DNA of 64,000 nucleotides from an uncultured Hyphomicrobiales bacterium. GTDB taxonomy: Bacteria; Bacteroidota; Ignavibacteria; Kapaibacteriales; UBA2268. Positions 6,865 to 53,859 of the stretch are shown here, piece after piece. Location of the stretch: positions 29,770-93,769 of the forward strand of contig CAZSWR010000003.1 of the NCBI GenBank assembly GCA_964610885.1, read 5' to 3'. The notes under the pieces were generated by a model that was given only the letters and a program-made list of their open reading frames with translations, did not search any database and had not been told where the DNA came from. How positions within the stretch are numbered: the first letter of the stretch is position 1; every line of letters starts with the position of its first letter. The translations under genes and the position numbers were made by a program.

Positions 6865-7190
6865 TTACAAGCACTATGAAGACTGCGCCCACACAGAGCA
6901 GCTGAGTTTTGCAACATATTACCATCCAATACCAATTAAATGCCTTGAAAGTCAGTACTGCCAAGGCCTACGGGCGTGGCCACCAGACAAAGTTCAAATA
7001 TGATATTAATCAAGAGGTAAATTATCGGAAAAAATTTTCTAAAACTTAATAATATCTTTTGCATATATACTTATTTATAACGTAATTTGGATGTTTGAAT
7101 AAATGAAAAATTTGAATTAATTCTGTATAGGATTTCATAAATTTTGGAAACGCATTATTTCATTTGTTAAACTATACAACAGGAGTGCAA

Positions 7191-10100
7191 ATGCACTTTA
7201 AGAAACTATTTTTCATGCTCAGTATTATAGTGCTCGCAGCCGTTTCGGCCTTTGGCCAGACGCACCCTACAGCATATAACCTGAGCGGCGGCAGCTATAA
7301 TTTCAATAGCTGGCTGGGCACGAACCTTTCCGGAACCTACCCACCCAATATGATGTTCCACAGAACAGGCGGAACTACCGACCCGGTAGTTACAACGGCA
7401 ATGGTCGCCGACTACACTCGCGGATATGCCGAAGCGTCCTATGGCCGTATCTATGGCGATGGCGACAATGGCTTTTCGTTTATTAACTCCGGTACCAATG
7501 CCACAGGCCCATACCTTGGCGCCGCAGTCCTTGCGCTGAATACGACAGGCTGCACGAACATCCAAATCGGCTGGACCGGCAGGACAGTAGCCATCGGAAC
7601 GGGCCGCCCCTACGTGGTGCGTTTGGAATACCGCGTCGATACAACCGCCGATTGGTTGGACATGCCCACGACCTCTATGTATGCCGCAACAGGCATACTT
7701 GGTGACTTTACAGTTATGCCCACGGTTACCCTTCCCGCATCTGCCGAGAACCAAGCTTATGTCGAAGTTCGTTGGCACTATTATCAGAATGCCGCAACTG
7801 GATCAGGCAGCCGTCCGCGCATTGGTGTCGATGACATCACCGTTTCGGCCACTGTCGCTTCGGCTCCTGTCGTTACGACTTCAACCGCCACGGGTACAGC
7901 GACTCAAATCACTACCGGCGGAAACGTTACAAATGGCGGCTCTGCCCCCGTTACCGCTCGCGGCGTCTGCTGGGGAACTGCTGTTAACCCCGAAATCACC
8001 GGAGACCACACAACTGACGGCGCAGGCACTGGCGAATTCACGAGTACGATCTCTGGCCTTACGCCCAATACAGTTTATCACGTCCGCGCGTACGCAACCA
8101 ATTCAGTTGGCACTTCGTACGGTAGCGACGTTACCACAAGCACCGGCGGAGCAATTCCGCCGAGCGTCATAACGGCACAGCCTACAGCAACAGCGACAAC
8201 AATTGAAACCGGCGGCAACGTTACCGCAATCGGCTCGTCGGCTGTAACGGCCCGCGGCGTCTGCTGGGGCACTGCCACCGCCCCGACAATTTCCGGGAAT
8301 CACACAACTGACGGCGCAGGTTTAGGCAACTATTTCTCGACAATCACCGGCCTAACTCCCTCGACAACATACTATGTACGCGCCTATGCTACATCTGCCG
8401 ACGGAACCGCTTACGGTTTTGAATACACAATTGCCACACTTGCCCCGCAACCCCCGACGGTTACTACCACTGCCGGAGTCCCCACGGCAACAACGATCGT
8501 TACAGGCGGCAACGTTACCAACGAGGGTACTACTCCCGTTTCGGCTCGTGGCGTCTGCTGGGGCACGGCCACCGGCCCGACGATCGCAGGCAACCACACG
8601 ACAGACGGCACCGGAGCCGGCGTGTTCACAAGCACAATCAGCGGATTGAGTCCGGTAACTACGTATTACATTCGCGCTTATGCAACGAGCGCCTCCGGCA
8701 CATCCTACGGTAGCGAAATCACCGTGAAAACGGCTGTTGGCGCGTACGACCTCTTCGCATCGGAATACAACATGGTTTATTGGGACAGCCTTGCCCTGGC
8801 CGGATCGTATCCGCCATCGATGATCTTCCGCTGCACCACAGCTGTGGATCCGGGACTTGCCAACGAAATGAACAAGGACTGGACTCTCGGATATAATCTG
8901 AAAACCGGTACAAGAATCAACGGCTTGCTCGATAGCGGTTTTTGCTTTGTCAATACAGGCAGCTCGAACGCGGGCGGCGGCTGGCTCGGCACAGCAGAAC
9001 TTTCGCTGAACACTACCAATTGCGCCAATATCGTGGTTAATTGGGTGGGCGGCTTCATGGACCTTAGCAGCTCATCGACACGCGACTGGCGAATCCGTCT
9101 GCAATACAAAGTCGGAACAACCGGCACGTACAACGACGTGATGGACGCAAACGGCCAACCCGTCGAATATAGCTACGACACATATATTAACAACAACAAC
9201 TGGGCTTCGCTACCGCGCGACTCGAAACAGCTCGCCGGCACTTTGCCCTTCGACGCAGAGAACCAGCCCTACGTCGTTGTTCGCTGGAAATTCTACCAAA
9301 AATCGTCAATAGCAGGCGGCGCACGCCCACGAATGAGAATCGATGATATCAACATCACTCGCCAATCCACAGTTGGGACGCCCACCAAGCTCACAATCAC
9401 AGCCGTTACGCCCGAGAAACCAATGACGGGCCTTCCTTTCTCGATTACTGTGAGAAGTACGGACGCCACCGGCGCACCGAAAAATGTTTCGCAGGCCACC
9501 ACGGTAACCCTCTCGAAAACTATCGGCACAGGCAACCTGATGGGCACGCTCACAGGAACAATCCCCGCCGGGCTTAACTACGTGGTGTTTAACAATCTGA
9601 CCTACGAAACCGCCCAGGCAATTACAGTGCGCGCAGACGCATCGCTTGGCGACGTGCTCGGATTCGCCACCAAACAAATCACCGTACTTGCCAAACCGAC
9701 TGTTGCTCTCAACATCTATCCGAAGGGCCACGTCGGAATCGCATTGCCCACCTTCACGGTCGAAGCTCGCAAGGCAAATGCAGAAATCGAAACAAATTAC
9801 TCGAACTACGACGTTACTATCACGAAAGTCTCCGGCCCAGGCAATATCACGGGCGTGATGACCAAGAAAGCCCAGAACGGCGTTGCTTCGTTCGATGGCT
9901 TGGTGTTCAGCGCAGCCGGCTCGTACGTTATTCGCGCAAGCGCACAATTCATTGGCGACGCACCGGATCAGGAAATCGTTATCAACGCAGCTCCTACGCT
10001 GGGCGAGATTATCATTCCGCGCTTCGCTAAGGGCGTCGGGAACGTCGATGAAGTCGATGAAAACAACAGCACACGAGTCCCCACTTATGCACTTGTTACT

Positions 10101-27753: not shown

Positions 27754-27890
27754 AGGGACTGTCTCAAATGTGTCATTCTGAACGTAGTGAAGAATCCATG
27801 CCATTCATAAGTACTTGCTAATAATGGATGTTTCACTTCGCTCAACATGACAATAAAACAGTTTTTCGGGCTTTTGAGACAGCCCCCTAC
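27754..27890 (-). repeat. family 2: ~137-bp element with GGGGCTGTCTCAAAAG TIRs and an inner 26-bp inverted repeat
   Basis: About 90% identical by eye to the reverse complement of 57439-57575. Its terminal CTAC...GTAG contains the stop codon of the gene at 27887. Confidence 0.85.
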
Positions 27891-30043
27891 TCTACCATAA
27901 ATTTTCCGACGGCCACTGTCCGGCCGCCAACGCTTGCGCGGGCAAAGTACGCACCCTTCGCGAAGGCGCTGCAATCGATGCTGATTTCGGCTGTGGCTGT
28001 GGATTTCTGGAACGCGGCCACGTAACACCGCTCGCCGAGAGATGAGGATACTTCGACAGTACCGCTTCCAACTTCATCGCCACCGATAGTGAGGATTGTT
28101 TGCGCGTGGGCCGGATTCGGCACGGCCACGATCGAATTCATCGGCGGGACGGATCCGTCGCCCTCGGCCGGCGTGAAGTTCCAATCGGGCGCCCATTCGG
28201 CCAGGTCGGAGCGATAGGTCATTGCAAGCAAGTATTTGCCCGACGGAGAAATAATGACTTTGCATATCGGAGTGCCGAACAGGTCATTGTAAACGAACTG
28301 GGTGCGGCCCGACTCGGCGTCCAGGGTTGCTATTTCGCCCATCGAAGATGAATACACAATGTGTTTCCCGTCCGGCGTGTAGTTCAGAGTGAACGGAGCG
28401 ACCCATTTGAGTTTAAAAGTCTTAAGGACGGAACCGTCCGCGGTGGAAAAAATGCGCAGAGTGTCTGTGGAGTCCGCAATGGCAATGCTGCGGCTGTCCG
28501 GCGCGAAGGCGGCCGAGCCATAGCCAATATAGGCATTGTTGAATCCAAGGGCATCAAACACTTTCCCGCCTGTCCGTGTGTTGTATATGCTGTATCCCGC
28601 GTATGGTTCTTTCCAATCGATTAAATAGTTTTTGATGGCGAGGCAAGTATTGCCGTCGGGCGAGAGCTTCACAATCCCGGCGGGGCAATCGAAGGACGCG
28701 CCAACTTCTTTCGTGCGCAGGTCCACCACGAAGGCTTTGCCTGAAGTGTCCTGTACGACTACACTTGTAACGTCTTGATTGGAGCAAGCACGACTCGCAC
28801 CCAATTTAGGAATAGGAATTGAATCCAATAATGCCTCTTCGCCCAAAGTTCGTTTCTCAATCCTGCCTGCGCGGACGTACCACACGCTCTCGAGGGATGG
28901 GTCTAGAGTAAACCGAGGACCTATGAATGGGTATTCATTCAAATTATAAGAATACGAACCGGCATAATTTTCATTTTCAATTTTATTGCCAAAAGAAGAG
29001 GCCCAATAATGCAATGGGCCAACAGAAATTGAAACACCGGCAATTACTTCTTCGTTTTGCGAATATCGCAATGGAAAAGCATAGTAATTATTGAGGGAAT
29101 ATAGTGTGTCCCCATTGAAATTGAAACCAAATAAACTGAAGTCATCAAAGTACAAAAACTTGTCACCCGACCTAAACATCTGGCCATAGAATGGCTTGTT
29201 GTGGCGAGTGAATGGCTTATCAGGTTCCATATAGAATAGAGTATCGCCTGTTTGAAAAATCAGTGCGTTATTCGCCTTGTCGAATAGATATGCACCGCCA
29301 TGGAGAAACAAGCTGTCCTCCCAACGGCACAACTCGGCTCCGTTATCGGAACTGTGCTTAATAAAAAACACACTGTCCGCCGTGAAGAAGCATTTCCCAT
29401 CTTGGGAAAAGCCTCTGAAACTCGAATTGTCGTGGAATCGAGTAAAAAGCGAATCGCCCGTTTTCATGTCGTAGTAAACGTCGAAATACGTATAGGCAAC
29501 TCGCAGGCGTGACCGATCCTTGGATGCTGAAGCGCCCTGCACTTCGTCCCAAGCCTCTTGGGTGGGGAAGCTGAAGGTGGCCAATCGCTCTTTGTTCTCG
29601 AGGTCGTAGCATTTCAGCACGCGCTTATCAAGGCTGTAGAGCGCTTTGATGGGCTTAGAATCGTAGAGGTATTGGCAAAAGGATGAGCCTACCGGGAATG
29701 TGTCGGGGATGGCCAAAGTGCTCATAACATTGCCGTGCTTGTCCTTTTTCTCCACGCTTCGCACTCCATCCATGAAGTATTCGGTGATGAAAGTCGAATC
29801 CGATTCGTCGAACAAAAGGGATAATTGCACAGTGTCGCTTATCAATACGGGAAACCCATTTGCCTTGTTTAGGACAATTGCATGGGATGCATTATTATGA
29901 AAAACGAAGCAATTGTATTGAATTGAGTTCTGAAAACTATCATCATTATTGAAGAAGTTAATGAACTTCAGGTATGGGTTTGTCTTGGCAAAGCAAGTAG
30001 CCGAAATAGCGAGCAGAATCAAAGGGAGGAATGTTTTTTTCAT
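27887..30043 (-). CDS. secreted WD40/beta-propeller protein with a T9SS C-terminal domain
   Basis: Signal peptide MKKTFLPLILLAISATCFA from ATG 30043 (the track starts at TTG 30055). Propeller-like repeats (SPDGNTCLA, APDSRSIAIA, TPDGKHIVYSS, SPSGKYLLA). CTD-like end (VPNPAHAQTILTI...GAYFARASVGGRTVAVGKFMVE). Confidence 0.8.
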   Translation of the reverse strand: MKKTFLPLILLAISATCFAKTNPYLKFINFFNNDDSFQNSIQYNCFVFHNNASHAIVLNKANGFPVLISDTVQLSLLFDESDSTFITEYFMDGVRSVEKKDKHGNVMSTLAIPDTFPVGSSFCQYLYDSKPIKALYSLDKRVLKCYDLENKERLATFSFPTQEAWDEVQGASASKDRSRLRVAYTYFDVYYDMKTGDSLFTRFHDNSSFRGFSQDGKCFFTADSVFFIKHSSDNGAELCRWEDSLFLHGGAYLFDKANNALIFQTGDTLFYMEPDKPFTRHNKPFYGQMFRSGDKFLYFDDFSLFGFNFNGDTLYSLNNYYAFPLRYSQNEEVIAGVSISVGPLHYWASSFGNKIENENYAGSYSYNLNEYPFIGPRFTLDPSLESVWYVRAGRIEKRTLGEEALLDSIPIPKLGASRACSNQDVTSVVVQDTSGKAFVVDLRTKEVGASFDCPAGIVKLSPDGNTCLAIKNYLIDWKEPYAGYSIYNTRTGGKVFDALGFNNAYIGYGSAAFAPDSRSIAIADSTDTLRIFSTADGSVLKTFKLKWVAPFTLNYTPDGKHIVYSSSMGEIATLDAESGRTQFVYNDLFGTPICKVIISPSGKYLLAMTYRSDLAEWAPDWNFTPAEGDGSVPPMNSIVAVPNPAHAQTILTIGGDEVGSGTVEVSSSLGERCYVAAFQKSTATAEISIDCSAFAKGAYFARASVGGRTVAVGKFMVE

Positions 30044-30062
30044 AATAACTTCCAATCTAAAC

Positions 30063-30091
30063 GGGGCTGTTGGAATTACTCCAACAACCCC
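30063..30091 (-). terminator. stem-loop between the decayed cargo gene and the next gene
   Basis: GGGGCTGTTGGA / TCCAACAACCCC (11 of 12 pairs, 5-nt loop) with a weak U-tract on the minus strand. Confidence 0.4.
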
Positions 30092-30099
30092 ATTGATAA

Positions 30100-31002
30100 T
30101 TATTTAACAACAGTGAAAGAACCTGTTAGGAATGAATAGTTCGGAGATACTCCCAATCTAATTCTATAAGTATAGACTCCATTGGGTAATTCAGAGATAT
30201 TCGCGTTTTAAGTACTGTTTAATGAAGAAATGCTGAAAGAATTTGAAATTAAAAGCACATTATATGTATTGTAAATTTCTAGAACACACGTACCTTCGTA
30301 CGATGAAAAGATGTTGAAATTAATTGTTTCTGATGCTGGATTTGGTGAGATACGAACAGTATTTGCATTAAGAGTTGTTGAATCCTGAGGGATAGGATTC
30401 GGATTATTTCCACCACTAGCGGCCTCCATTGCCGAAAGTGTTGTGACTTCTCTTGTTAAAGTTCCGGCGTTATAAATAATTCCACCTGTTGTTGGTGAGA
30501 TAATATCATGATAATGGGGTGGTTCATTAAAGTCTATGGTCATAGGATTATCTGTTGTGCCATTGCCAACGTACATTGGTGCTTCAGAATCGGCCACTGG
30601 GCCACAGGCCATATCAAGGCATTGTTCCTGACAGGGCCTGTTATCACTTGAAATAGCAATATCATCTTGTAAAGTAAATGCACTTCTACTTTTGTTTAAT
30701 TGTTTTCTAACTTTAATTCTGTGTTTACAACATTTTAGCCAACAACTCTGTATATTTGATGTTATCATTCCATCGCTGACATCGTTGTATCTTTCGGTAA
30801 TCGTATTGTTATCATTATCCAACCTTTGATAAAAATAATATGTCAGTCTCAAATCATTTGAAGAATTGTATCCGACACAGCTAGGTGTAGCAATTTCATA
30901 ACTATAAGTAGCACCAATATTCCAAGGATAACGAATAAAAGAATATGCTGACAAAGTAAGCAAATCAACAGCCCTTCTAATATTAAATCTAATCGAAGAC
31001 AT
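30100..31002 (-). pseudogene. decayed T9SS cargo gene whose CTD is split by an in-frame TAA and which has no signal peptide
   Basis: The ORF ends ...ISPNPASETINFNIF...VLEIYNTYNVLLISNSFSISSLNST then TAA (30208-30210). The same frame continues NANISELPNGVYTYRIRLGVSPNYSFLTGSFTVVK to TAA at 30100-30102, which is the missing second half of a T9SS CTD. AT-rich. Confidence 0.7.
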
Positions 31003-31088
31003 ATCTTGAAGAAATCTCTGTGCACAAATATCGCAATTAGATTTTGTGCCATGTGATCCGTTCTGATTTAGATAATATAGATCAAATT

Positions 31089-31493
31089 CTAAAAATTAAC
31101 TTCAATAACAACTTCATTCGCATGTTTCCTTTCTCTAATCCACAATTTTGCAAGGACAACACAATTGTTATCTATTTCATTACCTGAATAAGAACCATCT
31201 GATGTAGTTGGATTTACAGCATGATATTGAAAACCAATAGGATGCCACGGGCCGTAACGACAGTTAGTATCCTCGACAAAACAATTTGGACCTACTACAA
31301 TATAGTCTTCGATATAAGGTCTCATTCTTTCATTATCTAGAACTTCCTCAACATAATCAAATGTCCCTGGGAATAACCCTGTAGGCGGGAATGTTACTAC
31401 TTGAGCTTCTGCAACTACGTTTGCAGCGAAGAGAACGAAAAGCACTGCGAGTGCGGATTTGATAGTCATTTTCATGTAATTTTCTTTTTTCAT
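31089..31493 (-). CDS. small secreted hypothetical protein
   Basis: Signal peptide ...MKMTIKSALAVLFVLFAANVVAEA|Q. Possible starts are at 31493, 31475 or 31469. AT-rich. Confidence 0.5.
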   Translation of the reverse strand: MKKENYMKMTIKSALAVLFVLFAANVVAEAQVVTFPPTGLFPGTFDYVEEVLDNERMRPYIEDYIVVGPNCFVEDTNCRYGPWHPIGFQYHAVNPTTSDGSYSGNEIDNNCVVLAKLWIRERKHANEVVIEVNF

Positions 31494-32220
31494 TTGTGTT
31501 ACAAAAATAAATAATTTTTTCACACAAGCATTGACTATATTTGCAATGCCTGCAAGGGCGAACAAGTGCGGCAGAAATGCCGTGCGAAGGGGTATCCGAA
31601 ACAAAAGTCTTCGAAAACTATTCGGATACTCTTTTTTATATTCATGTCATAGCAATTTCCTTTCTATTCCTTTCGTAAAATCATTTTATACAAATCTACA
31701 AAACAATCCCGAATAAAACAAATAGAAAAATTATATCAACTATTATATTTATCATATACTTATGAATACAGCAAACGGCGGCGGTGGCCAGTTTTGGTTC
31801 GTGGCTTCGGGGGTCAGGCTCTCGCTTCTGGATAAGCCCATCGGCAAAACACTTTTTCGTGAATTGCATTCATTGATATTAGTACAACAATCGAGATTGC
31901 ATTTTGATTCATCTTTTTGAAAATATTTTTTTCGTCGTTTATTATCAACGACTTACGCCTGCGGGAAATTACCCAATAAGCTACTAATTTGAGGTAGTAT
32001 TAATATTTATATGGTTCAATTGCGGATTGAATAGGTTGGGTCAGATTCCAAACCCGACCAAAGGGGATATAATAGAGTTATCTATTGAAAAAGTTGATTC
32101 TGATCGGTTGCACTTCGAGTTTCATAAGACATGTAATATATTGACACAAGAGGAGATTCCTCATTCGCGTGAACGACAGAAACACCCGAATTCAAATAGT
32201 AAATGATACTATTGAAACAT

Positions 32221-33249
32221 TTATCTTTCGTATTCCCCGTTGTAGAATCGGAGGAATTCTGTGATGTTTCTTTCGCTGCCCACGAAAAATGGGGTCTTCT
32301 GGTGAATTGAATCGGGCTTGATTTCGAGAATTCTCTGCTTGCCGGTCGTGGCCCTGCCTCCGGCCTGCTCGATGATGAACGAAAGGGGATTCGCTTCGTA
32401 AATAAGCCGAATTTTTCCGTCAGGTTGCGCTTCGTCCGCCGGATAGAGATATATTCCACCGTAATGGAGAATACGGTGCACGTCGCCAACGGCTGTTGCG
32501 ATATATCGCATATAATACGGCCTGGTTTTGTCCTCCGAAGGTGTTTTGATCCAATTAAGGTAGTTGCGGACTCGTTCGCTCCAGTTGAGTACGTTGCCTT
32601 CGTTGCACGAATAATGATTTCCCCAGATGGGCATGATAAGGTTCTTTTTGGTAAGAAGAAATTCGCCGATTGTGGGGTCGAAAGTGAAAACGTTGACGCC
32701 GTTCCCCGTGGTGTAAGCAAAAAGGGTGCTGCTGCCATAGAGGGCGTATCCGGCGGCCAACTGTTTGTATCCGGGCTGTAGCACGTCTTCGCGGGTGCCG
32801 TCGTTGTTAGCCGACGGATCCAGCCGTTCGTAGATCGAGAAAATGCTGCCGATGGTGATGTTCACGTCGATATTCGTGGAGCCGTCCACCGGGTCGAATA
32901 GCAGGACATATTTCCCGAGTGTGTATTTTTTGGGTATGCGAATTATATCGGTGCTCTCCTCGGAGGCCATAGCGCAGAAGTGCCCGCCATAGCTCATGGT
33001 TCGGATAATGGCTTCGTTGGCGTATTCGTCCAGCCGGCGCAGTCTGTCCCCCGAATAGTTAAAGCTGTCGGTCATGCCGAGTATGTCGTTCAGTCCGGCT
33101 CGGCGCACTTCCTTTGCTATCAAACGGATTGCGAAGGCCAGGTCTGCCAGGATGAGTGTGAATTCGCCTGTTGCCTCGGGGTGCACGGCTTGCTCTTCGG
33201 CCAGGTGGCGGCCGATCGTTACCAATTGCGATATATTATTCAATGCCAT
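32221..33249 (-). CDS. fbp: class 1 fructose-1,6-bisphosphatase
   Basis: 342 aa with LFDPVDGSTNID metal site, GSSTLFAY and GGIYLYPAD. Confidence 0.93.
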   Translation of the reverse strand: MALNNISQLVTIGRHLAEEQAVHPEATGEFTLILADLAFAIRLIAKEVRRAGLNDILGMTDSFNYSGDRLRRLDEYANEAIIRTMSYGGHFCAMASEESTDIIRIPKKYTLGKYVLLFDPVDGSTNIDVNITIGSIFSIYERLDPSANNDGTREDVLQPGYKQLAAGYALYGSSTLFAYTTGNGVNVFTFDPTIGEFLLTKKNLIMPIWGNHYSCNEGNVLNWSERVRNYLNWIKTPSEDKTRPYYMRYIATAVGDVHRILHYGGIYLYPADEAQPDGKIRLIYEANPLSFIIEQAGGRATTGKQRILEIKPDSIHQKTPFFVGSERNITEFLRFYNGEYER

Positions 33250-33268: not shown

Positions 33269-33302
33269 AATGCCGCCGAAAAGGTGCAAAATCGGCGGCA
33301 TT
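33269..33302 (-). terminator. strong hairpin between the Mor-like gene and fbp; either a terminator or a leader structure
   Basis: AATGCCGCCGA / TCGGCGGCATT stem with a 12-nt loop and T-rich runs on both strands. It sits only about 20 nt upstream of the fbp ATG. Confidence 0.5.
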
Positions 33303-33328
33303 ATTTTCTTCCATCGAATTATTGTATG

Positions 33329-33598
33329 TCAATAAATCTTTCTTTCTCGCTTTATGCGTCTCAAATACTGTGCCGAAACATTCAGATTGGCCGCAATTTG
33401 ACTGACGGATGTGTCCCGATTTTCGCGCAGGTAGCGTTCCACAAATTTGTCGAATCGGGAAATCCGCGGGAAATAAATGCTTACGCCCGCAAATTCGCGT
33501 AGCAGCCCGCGGACCACCTCCATGCCGAGCGCGTCGGCCACCATACGCAGGTCCTCCGTCAGCTCGTCCGGCCTCAAGGCCTCGAATACATTTTTCAT
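33329..33598 (-). CDS. Mor-like (phage Mu middle-operon-regulator family) small transcriptional activator
   Basis: 89 aa. The layout matches short Mor-family proteins: L..DLRMVADALGMEVVRGLLREFAGVSIYFPRIS followed by a C-terminal HTH (SVSQIAANLNVSAQYLRRIKRE). ATGA overlap with the upstream ORF. Confidence 0.6.
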   Translation of the reverse strand: MKNVFEALRPDELTEDLRMVADALGMEVVRGLLREFAGVSIYFPRISRFDKFVERYLRENRDTSVSQIAANLNVSAQYLRRIKRERKIY

Positions 33599-33906
33599 CG
33601 CCCAGCGCCCTCCTCTGCGAAGTCAGGCATACAATACGGCTCGAGGGCCGACCAATTCCTTTCGGAAAACTCTCCGACTATGAACGCCAAGTCCGCGTGG
33701 TCATCCTCGGAAATAATGCTCTGAGCGGCGCCGAGCGCCAGCACACAATCGACAGCCCTCACGAGCGAATCGACATCCGCGATCGCCTCGACAGCCGATT
33801 GCAATGCCTCCTGGCACCTGCCAATGGCCAACGCCCGCCTCCGGGCCAATTGCGACTGCTCCGCAAGGCCTCCGGCCCCAATCCGATTCCTAATATTAAC
33901 TGACAT
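33595..33906 (-). CDS. hypothetical acidic 103-aa protein, first gene of the leftward operon
   Basis: Its ATG at 33906 is the first start codon downstream of the leftward promoter, and its stop overlaps the next ATG (ATGA). No recognisable domain. A 164-aa ORF on the opposite strand overlaps it. Confidence 0.5.
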   Translation of the reverse strand: MSVNIRNRIGAGGLAEQSQLARRRALAIGRCQEALQSAVEAIADVDSLVRAVDCVLALGAAQSIISEDDHADLAFIVGEFSERNWSALEPYCMPDFAEEGAGR

Positions 33907-33942
33907 TTTGCAAATTCCCTTATTTGTTCGAAAAAAAGTTAC

Positions 33943-33971
33943 TTGACAAAAAGCTGAACATTTGTTATATT
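33943..33971 (+). promoter_or_regulatory. sigma70-type promoter P(right): TTGACA-N17-TATATT
   Basis: TTGACA at 33943-33948, a 17-nt spacer, then TATATT at 33966-33971. It points toward the HTH/S24 genes. Confidence 0.6.
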
Positions 33972-33978
33972 GGAAATG

Positions 33979-34054
33979 GTAAATATTACAATATTGAAAA
34001 GTAATATTTACTCTAATATAAGTAAATAATACGACAATGTCAAGTAATATTTAC
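33979..34054. promoter_or_regulatory. array of four 11-bp GTAA-N3-TTAC palindromic operator-like sites
   Basis: GTAAATATTAC at 33979-33989, GTAATATTTAC at 34001-34011, GTAAATAATAC at 34022-34032 and GTAATATTTAC at 34044-34054. Centre-to-centre spacing is 22, 21 and 22 bp. Confidence 0.65.
34015..34043 (-). promoter_or_regulatory. sigma70-type promoter P(left): TTGACA-N17-TATATT on the minus strand
   Basis: The minus strand reads GTAAATATTAC-TTGACA-ttgtcgtattatttact-TATATT-aga-GTAAATATTAC. The -35 is at 34043-34038 and the -10 at 34020-34015. Confidence 0.6.
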
Positions 34055-34127
34055 GAATATCGAAAATATATTTTTTGATGTATGGCTGGCTTTTGGGAAG
34101 GCACCAAACTCAAACTATACCGGCACA

Positions 34128-34550
34128 ATGTTACTAACACGAAGGGAATTCCAAATGGAAGAAATCAACAAGGCCATCGGCAAGCGATTGCAGGATGTGC
34201 GCAGGATCTACAACAACGGCTACCGTTGCTCTGCCGAACAGTTGGCCGCCGAGATTGGCGAATCCGTGGCAAATATTCGGAACTACGAATGCGGAAAGGC
34301 CGGCATTCCCAATCGTGTATTGTTGGCTCTGTACCACAAAGGAATTAATCCGATATACTTGCTTTCTGGCGAGGGTGAAGTCCACGCGCCAAACGCTGCC
34401 GGCGCTGCGCTCGGGTCGAGGACAATTGAGAACAAATTGAACAATGCGCAGTCTGTCTATCGGATCGAATCGCCCGCTCGGCCCGAAGGTATCGGGACGG
34501 CGGCTGCCGGTTCCATCGAGGATGAAATCAAGAGCAAGGGCAGAAAATGA
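34128..34550 (+). CDS. XRE-family helix-turn-helix regulator (stand-alone HTH with a long tail)
   Basis: HTH region: IGKRLQDVRRIYNNGYRCSAEQLAAEIGESVANIRNYECGKAGIP. The tail contains Ala-Gly dipeptides (NAAGAAL, TAAAGS). An alternative ATG lies at 34155. The stop overlaps the next ATG (ATGA). Confidence 0.8.
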   Translation: MLLTRREFQMEEINKAIGKRLQDVRRIYNNGYRCSAEQLAAEIGESVANIRNYECGKAGIPNRVLLALYHKGINPIYLLSGEGEVHAPNAAGAALGSRTIENKLNNAQSVYRIESPARPEGIGTAAAGSIEDEIKSKGRK

Positions 34551-35140
34551 ACTATTACGAAATGACGGACACAGAGCTGCGGAGGAAAATCAAGCGTTAC
34601 TACATGGACGAGCACTACGGGCTGCGGGACCGCGCCTCGGCGCTCGCCGAATTATTGTCCGAGAGTTCGCGGCGGCTCGAAAGGTCGTATTCGGGAACCA
34701 TTTCGATTTTCGATAGCGCAATTAACGACGCCGTGAAGGAAATCGGCGGACTGGACGCCGCTGCGTTTTCTCGCCGAGCATCCGCGAGGCCGGGCAATAC
34801 GGGCGCTCCTGGCATTGCGGCCGTCGAGCACCATGGCCCGGTACCGAAGGATTACGTGGTCTATCGCATAAGTGGCGATTCGATGATCGGCGCGGGAATT
34901 TCGGACGGGGACAGCGTCGTAGTCGAGCTTGCCAGCCCCGAGCTTTCTATCAATAGCTTTGACGGGAAAATTGTGGTCGCCGAGGTGTGCGGAGTGTCGT
35001 TCGTCAAAAGGCTCTGCTCCTGCGGCAATTCTTCGTTGCTACTGAAGTCCGAGAACCCGAAATATCCACCGTACGAGTTGAAAACATCCGATTCGCTGAA
35101 ACTGATCGGCGAAGTGAAGCAGATTATTCATAATATTTAA
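34547..35140 (+). CDS. S24 (LexA/UmuD/cI-type) peptidase-domain protein lacking an HTH, with an unknown ~95-aa N-domain
   Basis: 197 aa with the catalytic-type Ser in YRISGDS112MIGAGI and Lys in SFVK154RL, plus an S24 beta-core (GDSVVVEL, GKIVVAEV, LLLKSENPKY). Confidence 0.75.
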   Translation: MNYYEMTDTELRRKIKRYYMDEHYGLRDRASALAELLSESSRRLERSYSGTISIFDSAINDAVKEIGGLDAAAFSRRASARPGNTGAPGIAAVEHHGPVPKDYVVYRISGDSMIGAGISDGDSVVVELASPELSINSFDGKIVVAEVCGVSFVKRLCSCGNSSLLLKSENPKYPPYELKTSDSLKLIGEVKQIIHNI

Positions 35141-36367: not shown

Positions 36368-36408
36368 GGTGATTTTATGTCATAAACTATTTCAACTCGG
36401 GTGTTTTT

Positions 36409-36432
36409 GTCAATCCCGCGAATGCGGGAAGC
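36409..36432 (+). repeat. family 8 hairpin GTCAATCCCGCGAATGCGGGAAGC
   Basis: TCCCGC-GAAT-GCGGGA stem-loop. Confidence 0.7.
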
Positions 36433-36505
36433 TACTCTTTTTACTGTTAGTTACTTATTTCTCAAAGCGAATAATTATTCCTTTTTCATCAAAGAAATTA
36501 TATTA

Positions 36506-36746: not shown

Positions 36747-36843
36747 CAGTTCGCAATTATTACTTTTTTGGAGGGCCACTTTAGCAGCAAACAGATTAGT
36801 TTTGGGGTAACATATATTCGAGAAGTTAATTGCATGAAGATGA

Positions 36844-36867
36844 GATTCCCGCCTTCGCGGGAATGAC
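36844..36867 (-). repeat. family 8 hairpin, inverted copy
   Basis: gattcccgccttcgcgggaatgac is the reverse complement of gtcattcccgcgaaggcgggaatc. Confidence 0.7.
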
Positions 36868-36923
36868 AAAAGCAGATATTTCAAGTTAAAACGAAAAAAC
36901 GCTTAAACAACAGAATCCCCACC

Positions 36924-45490: not shown

Positions 45491-47560
45491 ATGAACAGGT
45501 TGTACTCAGCTTTTTTGCTTTGTTTAGTGCTTGGATTCTTCTTTTCCAACGCGAAGGCAGACGTATGGGAGAAGTATTGCTCGTCGCCAGAGGGCGCGGT
45601 AATAGTGGGAATCCAGGGTGACGCCGCAAATGGACTCGGTGTGGTAACGTACTCCAAAACTTTTATCCAAAGCGCGACGGACGCCGTCTGGTCTTTTGCG
45701 GGCAACGCTGACCTCGACGAAGGGAAACCGTACTTTTACGTCGGAGATGGGTTTATGTATTCGCTCTTCGAACAAAAATTGAACCAGGTCAGTTTATTTA
45801 CAAAAGCGACTGTTAGCGTTGACTTGCCCCAGGGCGTTTCGACCTCCGACGTGAAACGCATCGCAGCGAAGGGCGCGAAATGCGCCATTTGGTGCGCGGG
45901 CGATGCTTCGTCGATTCGCTACATTTATGATTATTCCACAAAGACATGGTCCGAACCGAAAACCTATGACTATAATTACTACGATGTATATGTGAGCCAG
46001 GGCGGTATCGTTTGGAGGAACTCATATGGCGAATTTGGGTTCGACCATCGGAAATCGACCGATCTGGGCGAGTCATGGTCGGATTTATTCACGAATGTAT
46101 CCAACGATATTTTCGTTGACCACCTTGGAAATCAATACACTTACTTCGAAGGGGTTGCTACCAAGATTGACAATTCCGGCAACAAAATCGAAGATTTCCC
46201 ATTCTTGCAGAACGAGACTCCGGAATCCATTGAAACCTTCCGGGATTCCAAATTACTTGTTCAATACTCAAACAGCATCGTTGTCATCGATATCGCCTCG
46301 AAGACGCCTATCGATACAATAGAATTCGATCCACTAACCGACGGCAGATTAGTTGGTTTGGCTATTGTTGGCAAAGATTTGTACGTTGGGACAAGCAACA
46401 GCGTTTTTATATACTATGATTTAGCTACGCTACCTGTGATCGACAAATCTGGGCTGAATGCGGCGATGGGTTTGTACCTTACTCCGTACAAAGGGAAATT
46501 GCTTATGAGGTCGGTGGTTGGCTTGTATAGCATCGACCAATTGGGCGCAGTGAAACTTTCGGGTGCTATGTCCAATATGGAGAATCCTTCGGGCAGGGAT
46601 ATGGTCGTTACCTCGGACAGTAAGATTTATCTTATCGACAGAATGTTACGCAAACTCATGTGCTCCACGAATGACGGACAAAACTGGCAAGAGATTGTCC
46701 TTCCTTCCGGCGACGTTGCTGATTATATTACAGAAATCCAACCCGTTGGTCTCGTCGTCGGAACTGCAACCGGCAACAAAATCTATTCAATAGCGTCCGG
46801 TTCGACCACACCAAAGCTAATCGCAACAATTAACTATCCGGAGAATTTGGAATTCCAATTTATAAAATTGTTCGGGTCCACCGTTGTTGTAGTTACTGAC
46901 CAATTAATCTTCAGATCGATTGATATGGGCTCAAATTGGACCGGTACGCCGTCCACCGTATTCTCCACCGTGTCCGACATGTTCTCGATGGGCGAAGGAA
47001 TCATATGGTTGGCATCCCAAGGTAAATTCTACGAATCGACAGACGATGGCGAAAGCTGGACAGAAATTTCCGAGGAGTATAATTTCCTCTATCCGCTCCA
47101 ATTGCCCGACAAGAGTATTATGTTTGCCCATGCAACCACATACGATACATATATCATCCATCCGGACAAATCAATAACCAAGTTCGCATATCCGGCGCCG
47201 GATAAATTTATTTCCTCGCTTTGCCTCTTCGAGGGATACGTTTACGCAACAACAATCGGCGGCGAAATCTATAGATTTCCGTATTCGGTCCTTCCCGCCG
47301 AGGAGCAACCCGCATGGGAGCAAGTCTCGGCCTTCCCCGTTCCGGCATCGGAATTGGTTACAATCTCGCTTGGCGGCGCTTCGGCCGGCGATGCAATAAT
47401 CGAAGTCTTCAATTCCTTGGGCGAAAAGCAAAACGTCAGATTCGCAATCGAGGGCAACGAAGCCAAACTGAACGTTGCCAGCCTGCCCCAAGGCGTTTAC
47501 ACAGCAAGAATAATGAACCAGCCCAATGCAACAACGACAAAATTCGTGATTGCAAGGTAA
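45491..47560 (+). CDS. secreted BNR/Asp-box (sortilin/Ycf48-like) beta-propeller protein with a T9SS C-terminal domain
   Basis: Signal peptide present. Asp-boxes: STDLGESW, STNDGQNW, SIDMGSNW, STDDGESW. CTD: FPVPASELVTISL...LPQGVYTARIMNQPNATTTKFVIAR. Confidence 0.85.
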   Translation: MNRLYSAFLLCLVLGFFFSNAKADVWEKYCSSPEGAVIVGIQGDAANGLGVVTYSKTFIQSATDAVWSFAGNADLDEGKPYFYVGDGFMYSLFEQKLNQVSLFTKATVSVDLPQGVSTSDVKRIAAKGAKCAIWCAGDASSIRYIYDYSTKTWSEPKTYDYNYYDVYVSQGGIVWRNSYGEFGFDHRKSTDLGESWSDLFTNVSNDIFVDHLGNQYTYFEGVATKIDNSGNKIEDFPFLQNETPESIETFRDSKLLVQYSNSIVVIDIASKTPIDTIEFDPLTDGRLVGLAIVGKDLYVGTSNSVFIYYDLATLPVIDKSGLNAAMGLYLTPYKGKLLMRSVVGLYSIDQLGAVKLSGAMSNMENPSGRDMVVTSDSKIYLIDRMLRKLMCSTNDGQNWQEIVLPSGDVADYITEIQPVGLVVGTATGNKIYSIASGSTTPKLIATINYPENLEFQFIKLFGSTVVVVTDQLIFRSIDMGSNWTGTPSTVFSTVSDMFSMGEGIIWLASQGKFYESTDDGESWTEISEEYNFLYPLQLPDKSIMFAHATTYDTYIIHPDKSITKFAYPAPDKFISSLCLFEGYVYATTIGGEIYRFPYSVLPAEEQPAWEQVSAFPVPASELVTISLGGASAGDAIIEVFNSLGEKQNVRFAIEGNEAKLNVASLPQGVYTARIMNQPNATTTKFVIAR

Positions 47561-51027: not shown

Positions 51028-53859
51028 ATGAAAAAGATTATTATACTCGTATTGTCGTTAGTTATTGCAAGCTCTGCCGTGCTTTCGGCCAAGGATTTTC
51101 GCATCATCGAAACCAAACAGGGCACCTCGATGGTAGCCGGCCACGCAATGGTGCGTCTGAAAGAAATGCCTTCTGGCGGTTCGGCCCAAAGCGCTTCGTG
51201 GGACTTTACCATCGTAGAGCCGCTGCTTTCGGCCACGGAAGCCACAGAGGCCAAGCGCACGCTGCGCCCGGCTGTCCTTGCTGCCAATCAATCCGAATTA
51301 TCGATGCTTGAGGATCGGCTGACTCGGACCTTCGTAGTGGAATTCGACCCCAAAGAAACGCCTGATGAGTTCTGCCACAGAATCGTGGCCGATTGCCCCG
51401 ACGTCGAATATGCCGAGCCGTGGTATGTGGCCGAAATTCAGTACAGGCCAAATGATAACTTGGTGGATTTCCAGGCTATGCTCGCCAACTGCAAATTCTT
51501 CGAGGCTTGGGACATCTACAAAGGCGATCCGTCTATCGTCATTGGCATCAGCGACAATGGCATTGACCAATCGCACGAAGACCTTGCGCCAAATATTGCA
51601 ATCAATACGGCAGACCCAGTGGACAGCATCGATAACGACGGCAACGGCTTCATTGATGACTACAACGGCTTCAATTTCGCCAACAGTGTGGACCATCAGG
51701 GCTACAACAATACATACGTGGAGAACGACCACGGCACAATGACCTCCGGAATCGCCGCCGCCAAGACTAATAACACAAAAGGCATCGCCGGGACAGGCTG
51801 TTTCTGCTCATTTTTCCCGATGAAAACAGCAGAATACGACTATCCGAAACGCATCGTTTACGGATACAAATCGCTTCTGTATTCAGCGATTCGCCATTTC
51901 AAAGTAGTTAGCTGCAGTTGGGGATTCCCGCTTAAGTATTCGCGTTTCAACCAAGAAATCGTGCGCTACGTGGCCGCAAACGATGTGGCTATTGTGGTCG
52001 CCGGCGGAAATGTCCGCTCAGTCATCCTTCAGACTAACTATCCGGCCGGATACACAGACTTGCTCTCCGTCGGCGAGGTGGACCAATCGGATATTATCTC
52101 CGGCAGCACCACACTCGGAGCGCATATCAACGTTATGGCTCCCGGCATTGGGGACTATTATACAACTTTCGAAAATGGATATTTGCAAGAAACGATTGGC
52201 GGCACTTCTGTGGCGACTCCGGTCGTGGCCGGATTGGTTGCGCTCGTCCGCGGCAAGAATCCGACTCTCAATGCCCTTCAATCCTTGGAAATTGTGCGCC
52301 AGGCAACCGACGACATCCGCTCGGTCAATGTGCCCTATGCGGACATTGTCCCGGGCAGGATCAACGCACAGCGCGCCCTCCAGACCGACCCGAACACGAT
52401 TCCTGGGCTTCGCCCACAGAGCATGCAATTCATCGGGCGCAGTGGCAATCCGGTCGTCCGCTACGACGTCGGGGACACCGTCAGGCTTCGCTTCCAGATG
52501 AAGAACCATTTGGCCGCGGCCAAGAATGTGCGTTTCGTGCTTTCTTTTGCTCAGGACGCGAAATCGTCGCTCCAAGCGGTCGAATCCACCGTCGTGGTGC
52601 CGAGTATTGCAGCTTCGAGTTTGTTCGATCTGGGCGATTTCAGCTTCGTCCTCAAGAACAGGAGCAGCGACAAGGCTTTCATCCGAGTGGATATTTACGG
52701 CGAAAACGGCTACAAAGATTTCTTCTTGATGTCGATTTATCCATACAACGAAATGCGGACGCTTGCGAACAGCACGGTAATGGCTTCGTTCGGCGACCGT
52801 GGCAATTTCGGCTACAGCCCTGATTTGTACGAATACGTGGGCGAAGGATTCTCGTATAAAAACATTGGAACCACGCTGGACAAAGGCGGACTATTCGTAA
52901 CGGCCGATTATACCCAAGCAGTTTCGTCACTCTTCAGCGAAAGAGACGACAACAACGATTTCGCGATCGAAAAGCCTTTCCTGGAGCCTTACGAGAACCA
53001 AGCCATATTCACAGACGCCAATGCCTACGAAGAATTCGCAATCGGCGTGCGCGTGCACCAAGACATTAGCATCGGCAGCGATGGCAAGGGCTACGTCAAG
53101 ATTATTAATCAAATCCAAAACACAGGCATAACCAGAAACCTGCTTGCTGCGTCGTACTATGTGGACTTCGACATGTCAAATGTGGATTCCAACCGCACAT
53201 CTCTTTTCCCCGAGGCCATTCCCGAATCGTATGCTGCAATGCCCGCCTCGGCCGAGCTTATTGAATCATCCGATCCGGATTGGCCATTCGTGGGCGTGGC
53301 TGCATTTGCAGGCAACGAACATCCGGCCCGCGCATTCACGGCCGGCATAGACCGGCGCACAAATTTCTCGATCGATCAATTGTGCGACATCGTGGCCACT
53401 GGCAGCAATACCCAATCGGAACTGTGGCGCGACGTAGCAGTAGCGGCCGGCGTTGAGTTCTCCGGCACAATCGAGAAAGACAGCCAGCGCACCTGCGCGG
53501 TTTGTTTCGCAGCGGCTGCGACCAAATCCGAACTGGCGGCTTTACTTCAGGATTGCATTTTGTCCGGGACTTATATTTCTGCGCGAGAGGACGCCCCGAG
53601 CGCACAAGTGGACTTTGCCGTGCTGCCCCAACCGGCGCAAGCGCATTCATCGCTCGTGATTACGGGCACTGAGGGCGGGCCGGCAAGGCTCGAAGTAATC
53701 GACATGCTCGGGAATTCGGCTATCGTGAAGAATGACTTGCAACTCGGCAAAGAATACTCAAACGTCCCATTGGACCTTTCCTCGCTCGCCCCTGGTGTTT
53801 ATATTTTGAAACTTACGATAAATGGTAATTCATTAGTTAAAAAAATAATATTACAATAA
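51028..53859 (+). CDS. S8 (subtilisin-family) serine peptidase with a T9SS C-terminal domain
   Basis: Catalytic triad motifs IGISDNGID, DHGTMTSG and GGTSVATPVVAG. CTD: VLPQPAQAHSSLVI...LAPGVYILKLTINGNSLVKKIILQ. Confidence 0.9.
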   Translation: MKKIIILVLSLVIASSAVLSAKDFRIIETKQGTSMVAGHAMVRLKEMPSGGSAQSASWDFTIVEPLLSATEATEAKRTLRPAVLAANQSELSMLEDRLTRTFVVEFDPKETPDEFCHRIVADCPDVEYAEPWYVAEIQYRPNDNLVDFQAMLANCKFFEAWDIYKGDPSIVIGISDNGIDQSHEDLAPNIAINTADPVDSIDNDGNGFIDDYNGFNFANSVDHQGYNNTYVENDHGTMTSGIAAAKTNNTKGIAGTGCFCSFFPMKTAEYDYPKRIVYGYKSLLYSAIRHFKVVSCSWGFPLKYSRFNQEIVRYVAANDVAIVVAGGNVRSVILQTNYPAGYTDLLSVGEVDQSDIISGSTTLGAHINVMAPGIGDYYTTFENGYLQETIGGTSVATPVVAGLVALVRGKNPTLNALQSLEIVRQATDDIRSVNVPYADIVPGRINAQRALQTDPNTIPGLRPQSMQFIGRSGNPVVRYDVGDTVRLRFQMKNHLAAAKNVRFVLSFAQDAKSSLQAVESTVVVPSIAASSLFDLGDFSFVLKNRSSDKAFIRVDIYGENGYKDFFLMSIYPYNEMRTLANSTVMASFGDRGNFGYSPDLYEYVGEGFSYKNIGTTLDKGGLFVTADYTQAVSSLFSERDDNNDFAIEKPFLEPYENQAIFTDANAYEEFAIGVRVHQDISIGSDGKGYVKIINQIQNTGITRNLLAASYYVDFDMSNVDSNRTSLFPEAIPESYAAMPASAELIESSDPDWPFVGVAAFAGNEHPARAFTAGIDRRTNFSIDQLCDIVATGSNTQSELWRDVAVAAGVEFSGTIEKDSQRTCAVCFAAAATKSELAALLQDCILSGTYISAREDAPSAQVDFAVLPQPAQAHSSLVITGTEGGPARLEVIDMLGNSAIVKNDLQLGKEYSNVPLDLSSLAPGVYILKLTINGNSLVKKIILQ

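Follow-up and report, generated by a model that had tools for sequence, protein, structure and literature searches.

A free-standing chromosomal cassette in which a putative S24-type repressor may be split into two polypeptides facing a Mor-like gene

We analysed a 64,000-nucleotide stretch of DNA, referred to here as the window, from an uncultured Hyphomicrobiales bacterium (GTDB lineage Bacteroidota; Ignavibacteria; Kapaibacteriales; UBA2268), which corresponds to positions 29,770 to 93,769 of contig CAZSWR010000003.1 in assembly GCA_964610885.1. Within it lies a compact four-gene cassette that an earlier note, made from the sequence alone, had described as a phage-like genetic switch with no phage attached. 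The cassette carries a small Mor-like gene, a gene for an acidic protein of 103 amino acids (aa), an XRE-type helix-turn-helix (HTH) gene and a gene for an S24 peptidase without an HTH, and its putative repressor appears to be divided over the last two of these:

33329 to 33598, minus strand: Mor-like gene, 89 aa, isoelectric point (pI) 9.8; presumed activator and thus the output of the switch
33595 to 33906, minus strand: gene for the acidic protein, 103 aa, pI 4.5; first gene of the leftward operon, accessory
34155 to 34550, plus strand: XRE-type HTH gene, 131 aa; presumed operator-binding repressor chain
34547 to 35140, plus strand: HTH-less S24 peptidase gene, 197 aa

The four open reading frames (ORFs), the acidity of the 103-aa protein and the two ATGA overlaps of 4 nt that couple the genes in pairs (33595 to 33598 and 34547 to 34550) can be read directly from the sequence and are as first described, with the exception of one start codon. 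Orthologues of the HTH protein begin with MEEINK and are preceded by a GAAGGGA ribosome-binding site, and therefore the HTH gene most likely starts at 34155, giving 131 aa, and not at 34128, 27 nt upstream. An AT-rich control region of 221 bp does lie between the starts originally assigned (33907 to 34127, 28% GC), and it extends to 248 bp with the corrected start. Two promoters and four operators are predicted there:

33943 to 33971, plus strand: promoter P_R, TTGACA-17-TATATT with a TG extension, serving the HTH-S24 operon
34015 to 34043, minus strand: promoter P_L, TTGACA-17-TATATT, serving the operon of the 103-aa and Mor-like genes
33979 to 33989: operator box 1, GTAAATATTAC, at the P_R transcription start
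34001 to 34011: operator box 2, GTAATATTTAC, at the P_L transcription start
34022 to 34032: operator box 3, GTAAATAATAC, a variant within the P_L spacer
34044 to 34054: operator box 4, GTAATATTTAC, abutting the P_L -35 element

Each promoter matches the consensus at 11 of 12 positions in a promoter consensus scan. The gene pairs had been said to diverge from this control region, which implies promoters placed back to back; the predicted promoters face each other instead, and their transcripts would overlap by about 30 nt. Such face-to-face geometry is typical of P2/186-type switches and not of lambda. The palindromic 11-bp boxes share the form GTAA-N3-TTAC with start-to-start spacings of 22, 21 and 22 bp, and box 3 is a perfect GTAAnnnTTAC in three relatives (L004, L008 and L011; related lineages carry L numbers throughout). 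Promoters and boxes are invariant in four close lineages, in which the surrounding spacer diverges. Among more distant relatives, the spacers of L073, L078 and L080 hold the same GTAA-N3-TTAC box type, and a face-to-face promoter pair is detectable at the equivalent position of L076. In addition, GTAAWWWTTAC occurs in three exact copies in the window, all of them in the spacer, where 0.15 would be expected, and none of 100 shuffles reached three copies. Based on this enrichment over shuffled sequence and on the recurrence in diverged lineages, the arrangement is not a product of chance.

The control region has some further features. A 15-nt inverted repeat (33934 to 33948 and 34038 to 34052; AAAAGTTACTTGACA and TGTCAAGTAATATTT) gives the two -35 regions mirror symmetry, and a half-box GTTAC abuts the P_R -35 element at the place where P_L has the full box 4; this half-box may represent a fifth operator site in the form of a weak half-site. 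Between the operators and the HTH gene, the leader is variable. Similarity of L013 to the window stops near window position 34075, and the sequence upstream of the HTH gene in L010 (1 to 235) holds hairpin repeats of the GGAGAGGGG type and no operators, which suggests small insertions in the P_R leader of some strains.

The S24 chain is divided into a helical N-terminal domain, a linker and a catalytic domain:

Residues 1 to 75: N-terminal domain of three helices
Residues 76 to 104: linker, unconstrained
Residues 105 to 197: catalytic domain of the LexA/UmuD' type
34880 to 34882: Ser112, catalytic dyad
35006 to 35008: Lys154, catalytic dyad

The earlier identification of this protein as an S24 peptidase without an HTH is borne out by profile and structure comparisons. 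The S24 profile PF00717 matches with an E value of 2.3e-16 over residues ~100 to 195 only, and no HTH is found in the chain. By sequence, the catalytic domain comes closest to UmuD' (E 1.2e-13) and not to LexA, a Foldseek search matches LexA C-terminal domain structures (E 4e-7, probability 1.0), and the fold agrees with the C-terminal domains of LexA, UmuD' and CI. Ser112, in a GDSM motif, and Lys154, in a VKR motif, are invariant in six close and nine wider sequences. An AlphaFold2 (AF2) model of the chain, with a predicted local distance difference test score (pLDDT) of 68, shows three N-terminal helices (residues 8 to 79), a disordered linker and a beta-domain. The N-terminal domain has no credible match in Pfam or the PDB and is novel.

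This chain has no evident cleavage site of its own. The Pfam S24 profile is matched only from its position 32 on, and thus the strand that carries the cleavage site is missing. Neither an alignment nor a scoring matrix of canonical cleavage sites, built from 33 sites of phage CI and UmuD-like proteins, found a conserved scissile Ala-Gly or Cys-Gly ~30 to 37 residues before the serine, within residues 60 to 105. The HTH and S24 domains are encoded by separate, adjacent ORFs in all ten lineages with the cassette, and in most of these the two ORFs overlap by ATGA or a similar sequence. The S24 chain thus fails two defining features of LexA and CI proteins, namely a single chain and an internal scissile bond, and for this reason we do not file it as a strict LexA/CI homologue and regard it as a new architectural variant.

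We found a candidate for the missing bond at the end of the HTH protein:

34503 to 34514, plus strand: tail motif A117-A118-G119-S120; candidate Ala-Gly cleavage or docking site

The HTH protein matches phrog_8 (E 5.5e-5), its family profile matches the HTH of MBF1/EDF1 (E 0.006), and relatives are labelled XRE-family in the annotation of one source. Its HTH head is highly conserved, whereas the tail is of variable length and defies alignment outside the Ala-Gly motif. Nine paired lineages all have A118 and G119, and an x-A-G motif (AAG, VAG, RAG, KAG or SAG) lies near the C-terminus in ~60 of 68 family clusters (~88%). Some of the tails look canonical for S24 substrates, such as PPVYKVAAGRI and LPVYKVAAGAP. 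In addition, one relative (P0137) is a single chain with the same HTH type, a site ...FASAG|PGQEITQEELIK... and then an S24 domain with 35% identity to residues 98 to 195 of the window protein. The comparison suggests that P0137 is what the precursor of the split would look like, with the break ~16 residues after the Ala-Gly. Taken together, the Ala-Gly in the tail, the S24 chain without a site of its own and P0137 point to a scissile bond that went with the HTH chain and to a protease that now works, or docks, in trans. UmuD, LexA and CI are all capable of intermolecular cleavage. Trans-cleavage at the tail Ala-Gly is a possibility that we take seriously, although the odds are somewhat against it.

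Other members of the HTH family have unusual architectures. In P0072, four HTH units of the family stand in tandem and are joined to an S24-like domain whose catalytic Lys has been replaced (TRRL). P0074 has a VAAG motif followed by ~320 residues of AT-hook-like repeats (APRRRGRPRLSE), and in P0098 and P0092 an AAG motif follows long Lys/Glu-rich segments that resemble coiled coils.

The leftward operon encodes the presumed output. The Mor-like protein matches phrog_836, a 'late transcriptional activator', with an E value of 5.6e-7 over residues 11 to 53 only, and the Pfam Mor family is matched by six of seven orthologues (best E 8.9e-6). A profile comparison with Mu Mor (1rr7; E 0.018) aligned the G-x-x-(Y/F)-(I/F)-P motif and the C-terminal HTH, and an AF2 model (pLDDT 77) is all-helical. 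The assignment of the 89-aa protein to the Mor family is weak. The 103-aa gene is present in seven lineages and absent from three (L073, L078 and L077), and its homologues in L004, L008, L011, L074, L076 and L080 conserve a D-L-x-F-I-x-x-E-Y core. The 103-aa protein has no credible match in Pfam, PHROG, PADLOC or the PDB, and a role as an anti-repressor or as a partner of the activator is speculation.

Several observations weigh against a split repressor that drives a Mor-family activator. The XRE and Mor labels are weaker than the earlier note implied: the PHROG and orthologue matches lend them some support, but the window proteins score below the Pfam thresholds, both for HTH_3 (PF01381; E 0.021, 15.3 bits against a cut-off of 23) and for Mor (PF08765; E 2e-4, 21.8 bits against 24.9). 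A Foldseek comparison of the Mor-like model with the PDB gave no significant match, with 1rr7 at rank 30 (E 4.7), and the top match in BFVD, a 'Middle operon regulator', was also non-significant (E 0.16, template modelling (TM) score 0.35). In the HTH family, the cleavage-site matrix finds nothing significant in the tail apart from the AG. The top-scoring site fell in the tail in 45 of 78 members, and 11 of the 78 reached a shuffle p<0.05 where ~4 would be expected by chance; the result leans against a canonical cleavage-site strand in the tail. Many tail motifs sit in helix-like sequence, for example ELLSKAEQFTAAAGDIMKIV, and ~8 of the 68 clusters have no Gly (AAAD, AADD or AAKD), so that a structural role of the motif is possible. 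Some members have only four to seven residues after the Gly, and cleavage would therefore remove very little. Lastly, no copy of the operator lies outside the cassette spacer within the 64-kb window. Since the motif is confined to its own spacer there, it points to local control with no visible regulon.

The tail and catalytic-domain results also bear on an alternative in which the HTH and S24 proteins are independent of each other, the former an ordinary XRE autorepressor and local regulator whose Ala-Ala-Gly is structural, as in a helix cap or dimer packing, and the latter a UmuD-like accessory protein, perhaps of a translesion polymerase encoded elsewhere, or a protease with another substrate. 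The failure of the tail motif to score as a canonical cleavage region, its frequent helix-like setting and the missing Gly in ~12% of clusters would all fit such independence, as would the preference of the catalytic domain for UmuD' over LexA. UmuD homologues without DNA-binding domains have also been reported from Bacteroidetes (PMC8565304). However, the two genes keep together in all ten lineages with no umuC or dinB beside any of them. Furthermore, the S24 chain, unlike UmuD, has no cleavable N-terminal arm and has instead a conserved helical domain and a neutral linker, and a single-chain relative with the same HTH type exists in P0137. We therefore consider independence unlikely, and it is reasonably probable that the HTH and S24 chains act together as a split S24-type regulator.

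The cassette is not confined to the window. Exact-match and profile searches found it in at least ten metagenomic or metagenome-assembled genome (MAG) lineages of Fibrobacteres-Chlorobi-Bacteroidetes (FCB)-type bacteria that bear the type IX secretion system (T9SS). The carriers, in all of which the cassette has housekeeping neighbours, are the window, L004/L005, L008, L009/L010, L011, L073, L074, L076, L077, L078 and L080. Gene order in L004/L005 is identical to that of the window, with fbp, the 89-aa gene, the 103-aa gene, HTH, S24 and yitT in succession. L008 has the quartet on a 2-kb contig, L009/L010 have the HTH and S24 genes (followed by yitT in L009), L011 has the quartet and then fbp, and L013 has the 103-aa gene, the 89-aa gene and fbp. 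Six more distant members were reached by a search with the HTH profile:

L076: quartet beside fbp; JGI metagenome
L073: trio without the 103-aa gene, beside fbp; 3.65-Mb contig
L078: trio without the 103-aa gene, beside fbp; 3.28-Mb contig, GCA_942490685.1
L074: quartet without fbp; Candidatus Kapabacteria MAG
L077: trio without fbp; JGI metagenome
L080: quartet without fbp; GCA_054033535.1

The four genes had been presented as a unit, but with the 103-aa gene lacking in three lineages the conserved core is a trio: a Mor-like gene facing an XRE-HTH gene that is coupled to an HTH-less S24 gene. The clades that carry it span 28 to 49% GC. A HMMER search of 1.84 billion representatives placed 37 clusters in the HTH family at E<=1e-30 and 85 at E<=1e-10. 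It is a genuine family, if not a large one. The Mor-like profile had no match among GTDB representative genomes, in which the window fbp itself found only a 45% match, in a Nitrospirae MAG, and scans of JGI metagenomes with the Mor-like and HTH profiles also returned no match.

All four genes are under purifying selection, and therefore functional, with ratios of nonsynonymous to synonymous substitution rates (dN/dS) well below 1 in comparisons with L013 and L009, where dS is unsaturated:

Mor-like gene: 0.00
103-aa gene: 0.11 (against L013)
HTH gene: 0.07 as a whole; 0.015 for residues 1 to 75
S24 gene: 0.15 as a whole; 0.09 for the N-domain, 0.79 for linker residues 76 to 104, 0.08 for the catalytic domain

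In L004 the Mor-like protein retains 98% identity despite a dS above 1 (dN/dS ~0.015), a constraint equal to that on fbp and yitT. It is the most constrained component by these sequence comparisons, which fits a DNA-binding protein with fixed targets. Residues 1 to 75 of the HTH protein are 97% identical to L009. By comparison with L004, where dS is saturated, the S24 and 103-aa proteins retain 66% and 44% identity, and these two and the HTH tail evolve 10 to 30 times faster in dN. Positive selection on the fast-evolving genes was considered and rejected, with dN/dS <=0.2 everywhere except the S24 linker, which evolves almost neutrally. Thus both leftward ORFs, whose lack of conservation would have spoken against the cassette, are conserved and constrained.

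These results also bear on a decaying prophage immunity remnant without present function, which is suggested by the phage-like parts: an S24 domain of the CI/UmuD type, an XRE HTH, a gene of the Mor type and promoters that face each other as in P2/186-type switches. As the earlier note had observed, there are no integrase, structural, replication or lysis genes and no att-like repeats nearby, and we found none of these, and no tRNA, elsewhere in the 64-kb window. The window is ordinary chromosome, with leuS, htpG, two-component systems and several T9SS-sorted proteins. The 10-kb flanks of six other lineages likewise hold no phage genes or att repeats, and wherever the cassette recurs it lies in ordinary chromosome, often linked to fbp, and never in a prophage. 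Neither the Mor-like nor the HTH profile had a match in a scan of the 2.9 million viral contigs of IMG/VR, and the S24 profile gave generic catalytic-domain matches only; L058, its sole 'full-length' match, was set aside as an ordinary single-chain CI-like repressor. Moreover, the four genes are under purifying selection with the Mor-like gene as constrained as fbp and yitT, the promoters and operators are intact, and the cassette keeps the same chromosomal site across species with saturated synonymous sites and persists in clades of widely differing GC content. Decay of a prophage is thus a most improbable explanation, and the description of a phage-style switch without a phage has stood up.

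Among the T9SS-sorted proteins of the window, four large ones end in Por_Secre_tail, the C-terminal sorting domain of T9SS (7164 to 12569, 27887 to 30055, 45491 to 47560 and 51028 to 53859); they include an 1801-aa Ig/fn3-repeat protein and an S8 subtilase, and they point to a host of the FCB group.

The cassette had also been proposed as a candidate defence module. A module for anti-phage defence or abortive infection, or a regulator of such a module like CapH/CapP or BrxR, would be in keeping with an HTH protein next to a separate protease, as in CapH/CapP, and with the rapid change of the S24 protein, the 103-aa protein and the HTH tail, whose dN is 10 to 30 times that of the neighbours. 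PADLOC-DB 2.0, however, gave no significant match, the only one being HTH_VI to the Mor-like protein (E 0.004), and no effector-like gene lies in the cassette or is conserved beside it. The cassette also occupies a fixed housekeeping locus and not a variable defence island, and its dN/dS is well below 1. The proposal is left without support, and a defence function is very improbable.

The gene next to the leftward operon is conserved in several lineages:

32221 to 33249, minus strand: fbp, class 1 fructose-1,6-bisphosphatase; conserved neighbour downstream of the Mor-like gene
33270 to 33305, minus strand: conserved GC-rich hairpin with a T-rich tract after it, in the interval from the Mor-like stop to the fbp start
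8042 to 9452 in L076, 8411 to 9835 in L073, 8410 to 9837 in L078: block of the Mor-like gene and fbp

The order and orientation of the Mor-like gene and fbp are kept in the window, L004/L005, L011, L013, L076, L073 and L078. In three clades fbp lies 80 to 110 bp downstream on the same strand, and its identity between these clades is only 56 to 58%. The opposite flank of the cassette is not conserved and holds yitT, gcvT or an uncharacterised gene, and the linkage to fbp is missing in L074, L077 and L080. It may represent inherited synteny or a functional link. The hairpin between the two genes has a folding energy of -21 kcal/mol and stops ~20 nt before the fbp ATG; its arms differ among four close lineages, in each of which it still folds. 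It probably terminates the leftward operon, and it overlaps the sole plausible promoter of fbp. No promoter-like sites for fbp occur other than two weak ones (33290 to 33263 and 33332 to 33303), which overlap or precede the hairpin, and hence any fbp transcript must either begin inside a structure that resembles a terminator or pass through it. Neither L073 nor L076 has a predicted hairpin of this kind in its Mor-fbp spacer.

This neighbourhood invites a reading in which the cassette is dedicated to fbp and gluconeogenic flux, with the Mor-like protein activating the fbp promoter or P_L reading through a regulated terminator, in response to a metabolic or stress cue. It shares the mechanism of the split repressor and differs in signal and target. 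The order, orientation and spacing kept in three clades beside a variable opposite flank would speak for it, and so would the conserved hairpin over the only candidate fbp promoter in the window lineage; in phage Mu, a Mor-dependent promoter lies just downstream of mor. On the other hand, three clades carry the cassette without fbp, the Mor-fbp spacers of L073 and L076 share no common motif or hairpin, the hairpin in the window resembles an insulating terminator, and we know of no S24 regulator that responds to a metabolic cue. Dedication to fbp is accordingly a doubtful proposition, and we have equally little confidence that fbp is a direct target of the Mor-like protein.

Three copies of a 40- to 48-nt repeat lie around this block (32159 to 32206, 36380 to 36439 and 36837 to 36874). 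Two of them carry a CCCGCGAA(T/G)GCGGGAA hairpin and flank a 470-bp segment that resembles a miniature inverted-repeat transposable element (MITE) and has no ORF longer than ~75 aa. The copies at 32159 and 36380 are inverted and 81% complementary, and they bracket the fbp-cassette-yitT block past its outer gene ends. We did not adopt these 48-nt inverted repeats as the ends of a mobile element: one arm is without the hairpin core, and relatives that retain the block with different outer flanks also disfavour that reading. Beyond fbp, the segment from 29800 to 32200 has a low GC content (31 to 40%, against ~49% for the window) and holds two orphan ORFs of 264 and 171 aa without a Pfam match. 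At that position L004 has genes for a glycosyltransferase, DUF2520, trmE and gidA next to fbp; either this side of fbp has been rearranged or it has received an inserted island.

Returning to the split repressor, we propose with moderate confidence that the cassette is a vertically inherited, free-standing chromosomal unit in which a LexA/CI-type repressor, divided into two polypeptides, drives an activator. The HTH chain would bind the four GTAA-N3-TTAC operators that cover the two sigma-70-type promoters, and the S24 chain would respond to the signal and probably also mediate dimerisation. Under repression, the HTH-S24 pair would silence P_L and limit its own P_R. On an inducing signal, most likely RecA-single-stranded DNA filaments by analogy with studied S24 regulators, the S24 chain would inactivate or release the HTH chain, and the step that we favour for this is trans cleavage at the conserved Ala-Gly of the HTH tail. 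P_L would then fire, producing the acidic accessory protein and the Mor-family activator, which would in turn switch on its target promoter or promoters, with fbp as the only positional candidate. A bolder version makes the cassette a two-polypeptide LexA, in which the Ala-Gly strand of the HTH chain docks in the S24 active site and RecA triggers trans cleavage. It would act as an SOS-like regulator of Kapabacteria-like FCB lineages, provided that canonical LexA is lacking there, with a possible coupling of DNA damage to carbon metabolism through fbp; we regard this version as rather unlikely.

The logic of the proposed switch has precedents. Liu, Chatterjee and Chatterjee reportedly described in 1994 (Mol Microbiol 14:999) the RdgA/RdgB pair of Pectobacterium carotovorum, a free-standing chromosomal pair without a prophage that is said to consist of a CI-like, RecA-processed repressor and a small Mor-like activator; RdgB reportedly switches on unlinked pectin lyase and carotovoricin genes after DNA damage. 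The two systems would be alike in that a repressor holds down a small activator and the pair stands free in the chromosome. RdgA, however, is a single chain with HTH and S24 domains where the cassette has two genes, and RdgA/RdgB has no 103-aa partner and an enterobacterial host. In the PrtR/PrtN pair of the Pseudomonas aeruginosa pyocins, a CI-like S24 repressor silences an activator, and RecA-stimulated cleavage frees the activator for dispersed promoters. PrtR is also single-chain, PrtN belongs to PF11112 and not to Mor, and PrtR/PrtN lies beside tailocin genes, of which we see none here. The small size, C-terminal HTH and G-x-x-(Y/F)-(I/F)-P motif of the Mor-like protein recall Mu Mor and C (PF08765, 1rr7), but its gene lies outside any transposable phage and the window protein scores under the curated threshold.

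Self-cutting S24 proteins are standard sensors of DNA damage and include LexA, CI, UmuD, HdiR, UmuDAb, non-canonical LexA and FddR. To our knowledge, the S24 regulators studied so far all carry the DNA-binding domain, scissile bond and protease on one chain, with the exception of UmuD, which has no DNA-binding domain. UmuD cleaves in trans within a dimer. UmuD and UmuD' (1umu, 1i4v and 1ay9) have the closest catalytic domain and are HTH-less like the S24 chain, but UmuD has its own Cys-Gly on an N-terminal arm and works with UmuC, whereas the N-domain of the S24 chain is helical and 75 residues long, and its gene is coupled to that of an HTH protein with no umuC beside it. The non-canonical LexA of Bacteroidetes (PMC8565304) and FddR of Francisella (PMC13148647) are chromosomally fixed XRE-HTH/S24 regulators of phage-CI ancestry, a co-opted group to which the cassette is closest by evolution. 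Like the cassette, they form self-contained divergent units, and they are autoregulated through palindromic operators, which have the forms GGA-N5-TCC, CTAA-N5-TTAG and GTG-N11-CAC, in contrast to GTAA-N3-TTAC here. They are, however, single polypeptides with an internal Ala-Gly, and their partners are repair genes or unknowns and not a Mor-type activator.

A repressor and a protease on separate chains are familiar from another enzyme class. In ImmR/ImmA and CapH/CapP, a small XRE-HTH repressor is inactivated by a protease from an adjacent, separate gene. According to a report on DdrO/IrrE (PMC6868357), an XRE repressor is inactivated by a separately encoded protease, and the cut removes a short C-terminal segment. 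The proteases of these three systems are COG2856 zinc metallopeptidases with a HEXXH motif, whereas the partner here is an S24 Ser-Lys peptidase, and the cassette proteins matched no metallopeptidase family. The cassette would thus be an independent route to the layout of a repressor and a separate protease.

The earlier note knew of no described system of this kind. Free-standing cassettes of an S24 repressor with a small activator are in fact known, and what we have found no description of is the splitting of the HTH and S24 chains; a literature search for a split HTH/S24 repressor returned nothing relevant, with partial coverage that makes this weak evidence of novelty. By these analogies, the cassette reads as functionally similar to RdgA/RdgB or PrtR/PrtN, and what would be novel is a repressor whose HTH and S24 parts sit on separate polypeptides. 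If true, this would be a natural trans-acting version of S24 chemistry, parallel to IrrE/DdrO, ImmA/ImmR and CapP/CapH. It would also amount to a compact and orthogonal switch under protease control, in which the operators are defined and the promoters face each other. The linkage to fbp, if functional, would be an unexpected tie between such a switch and gluconeogenesis. Overall, the cassette would open up stress regulation in poorly studied, uncultured FCB lineages.

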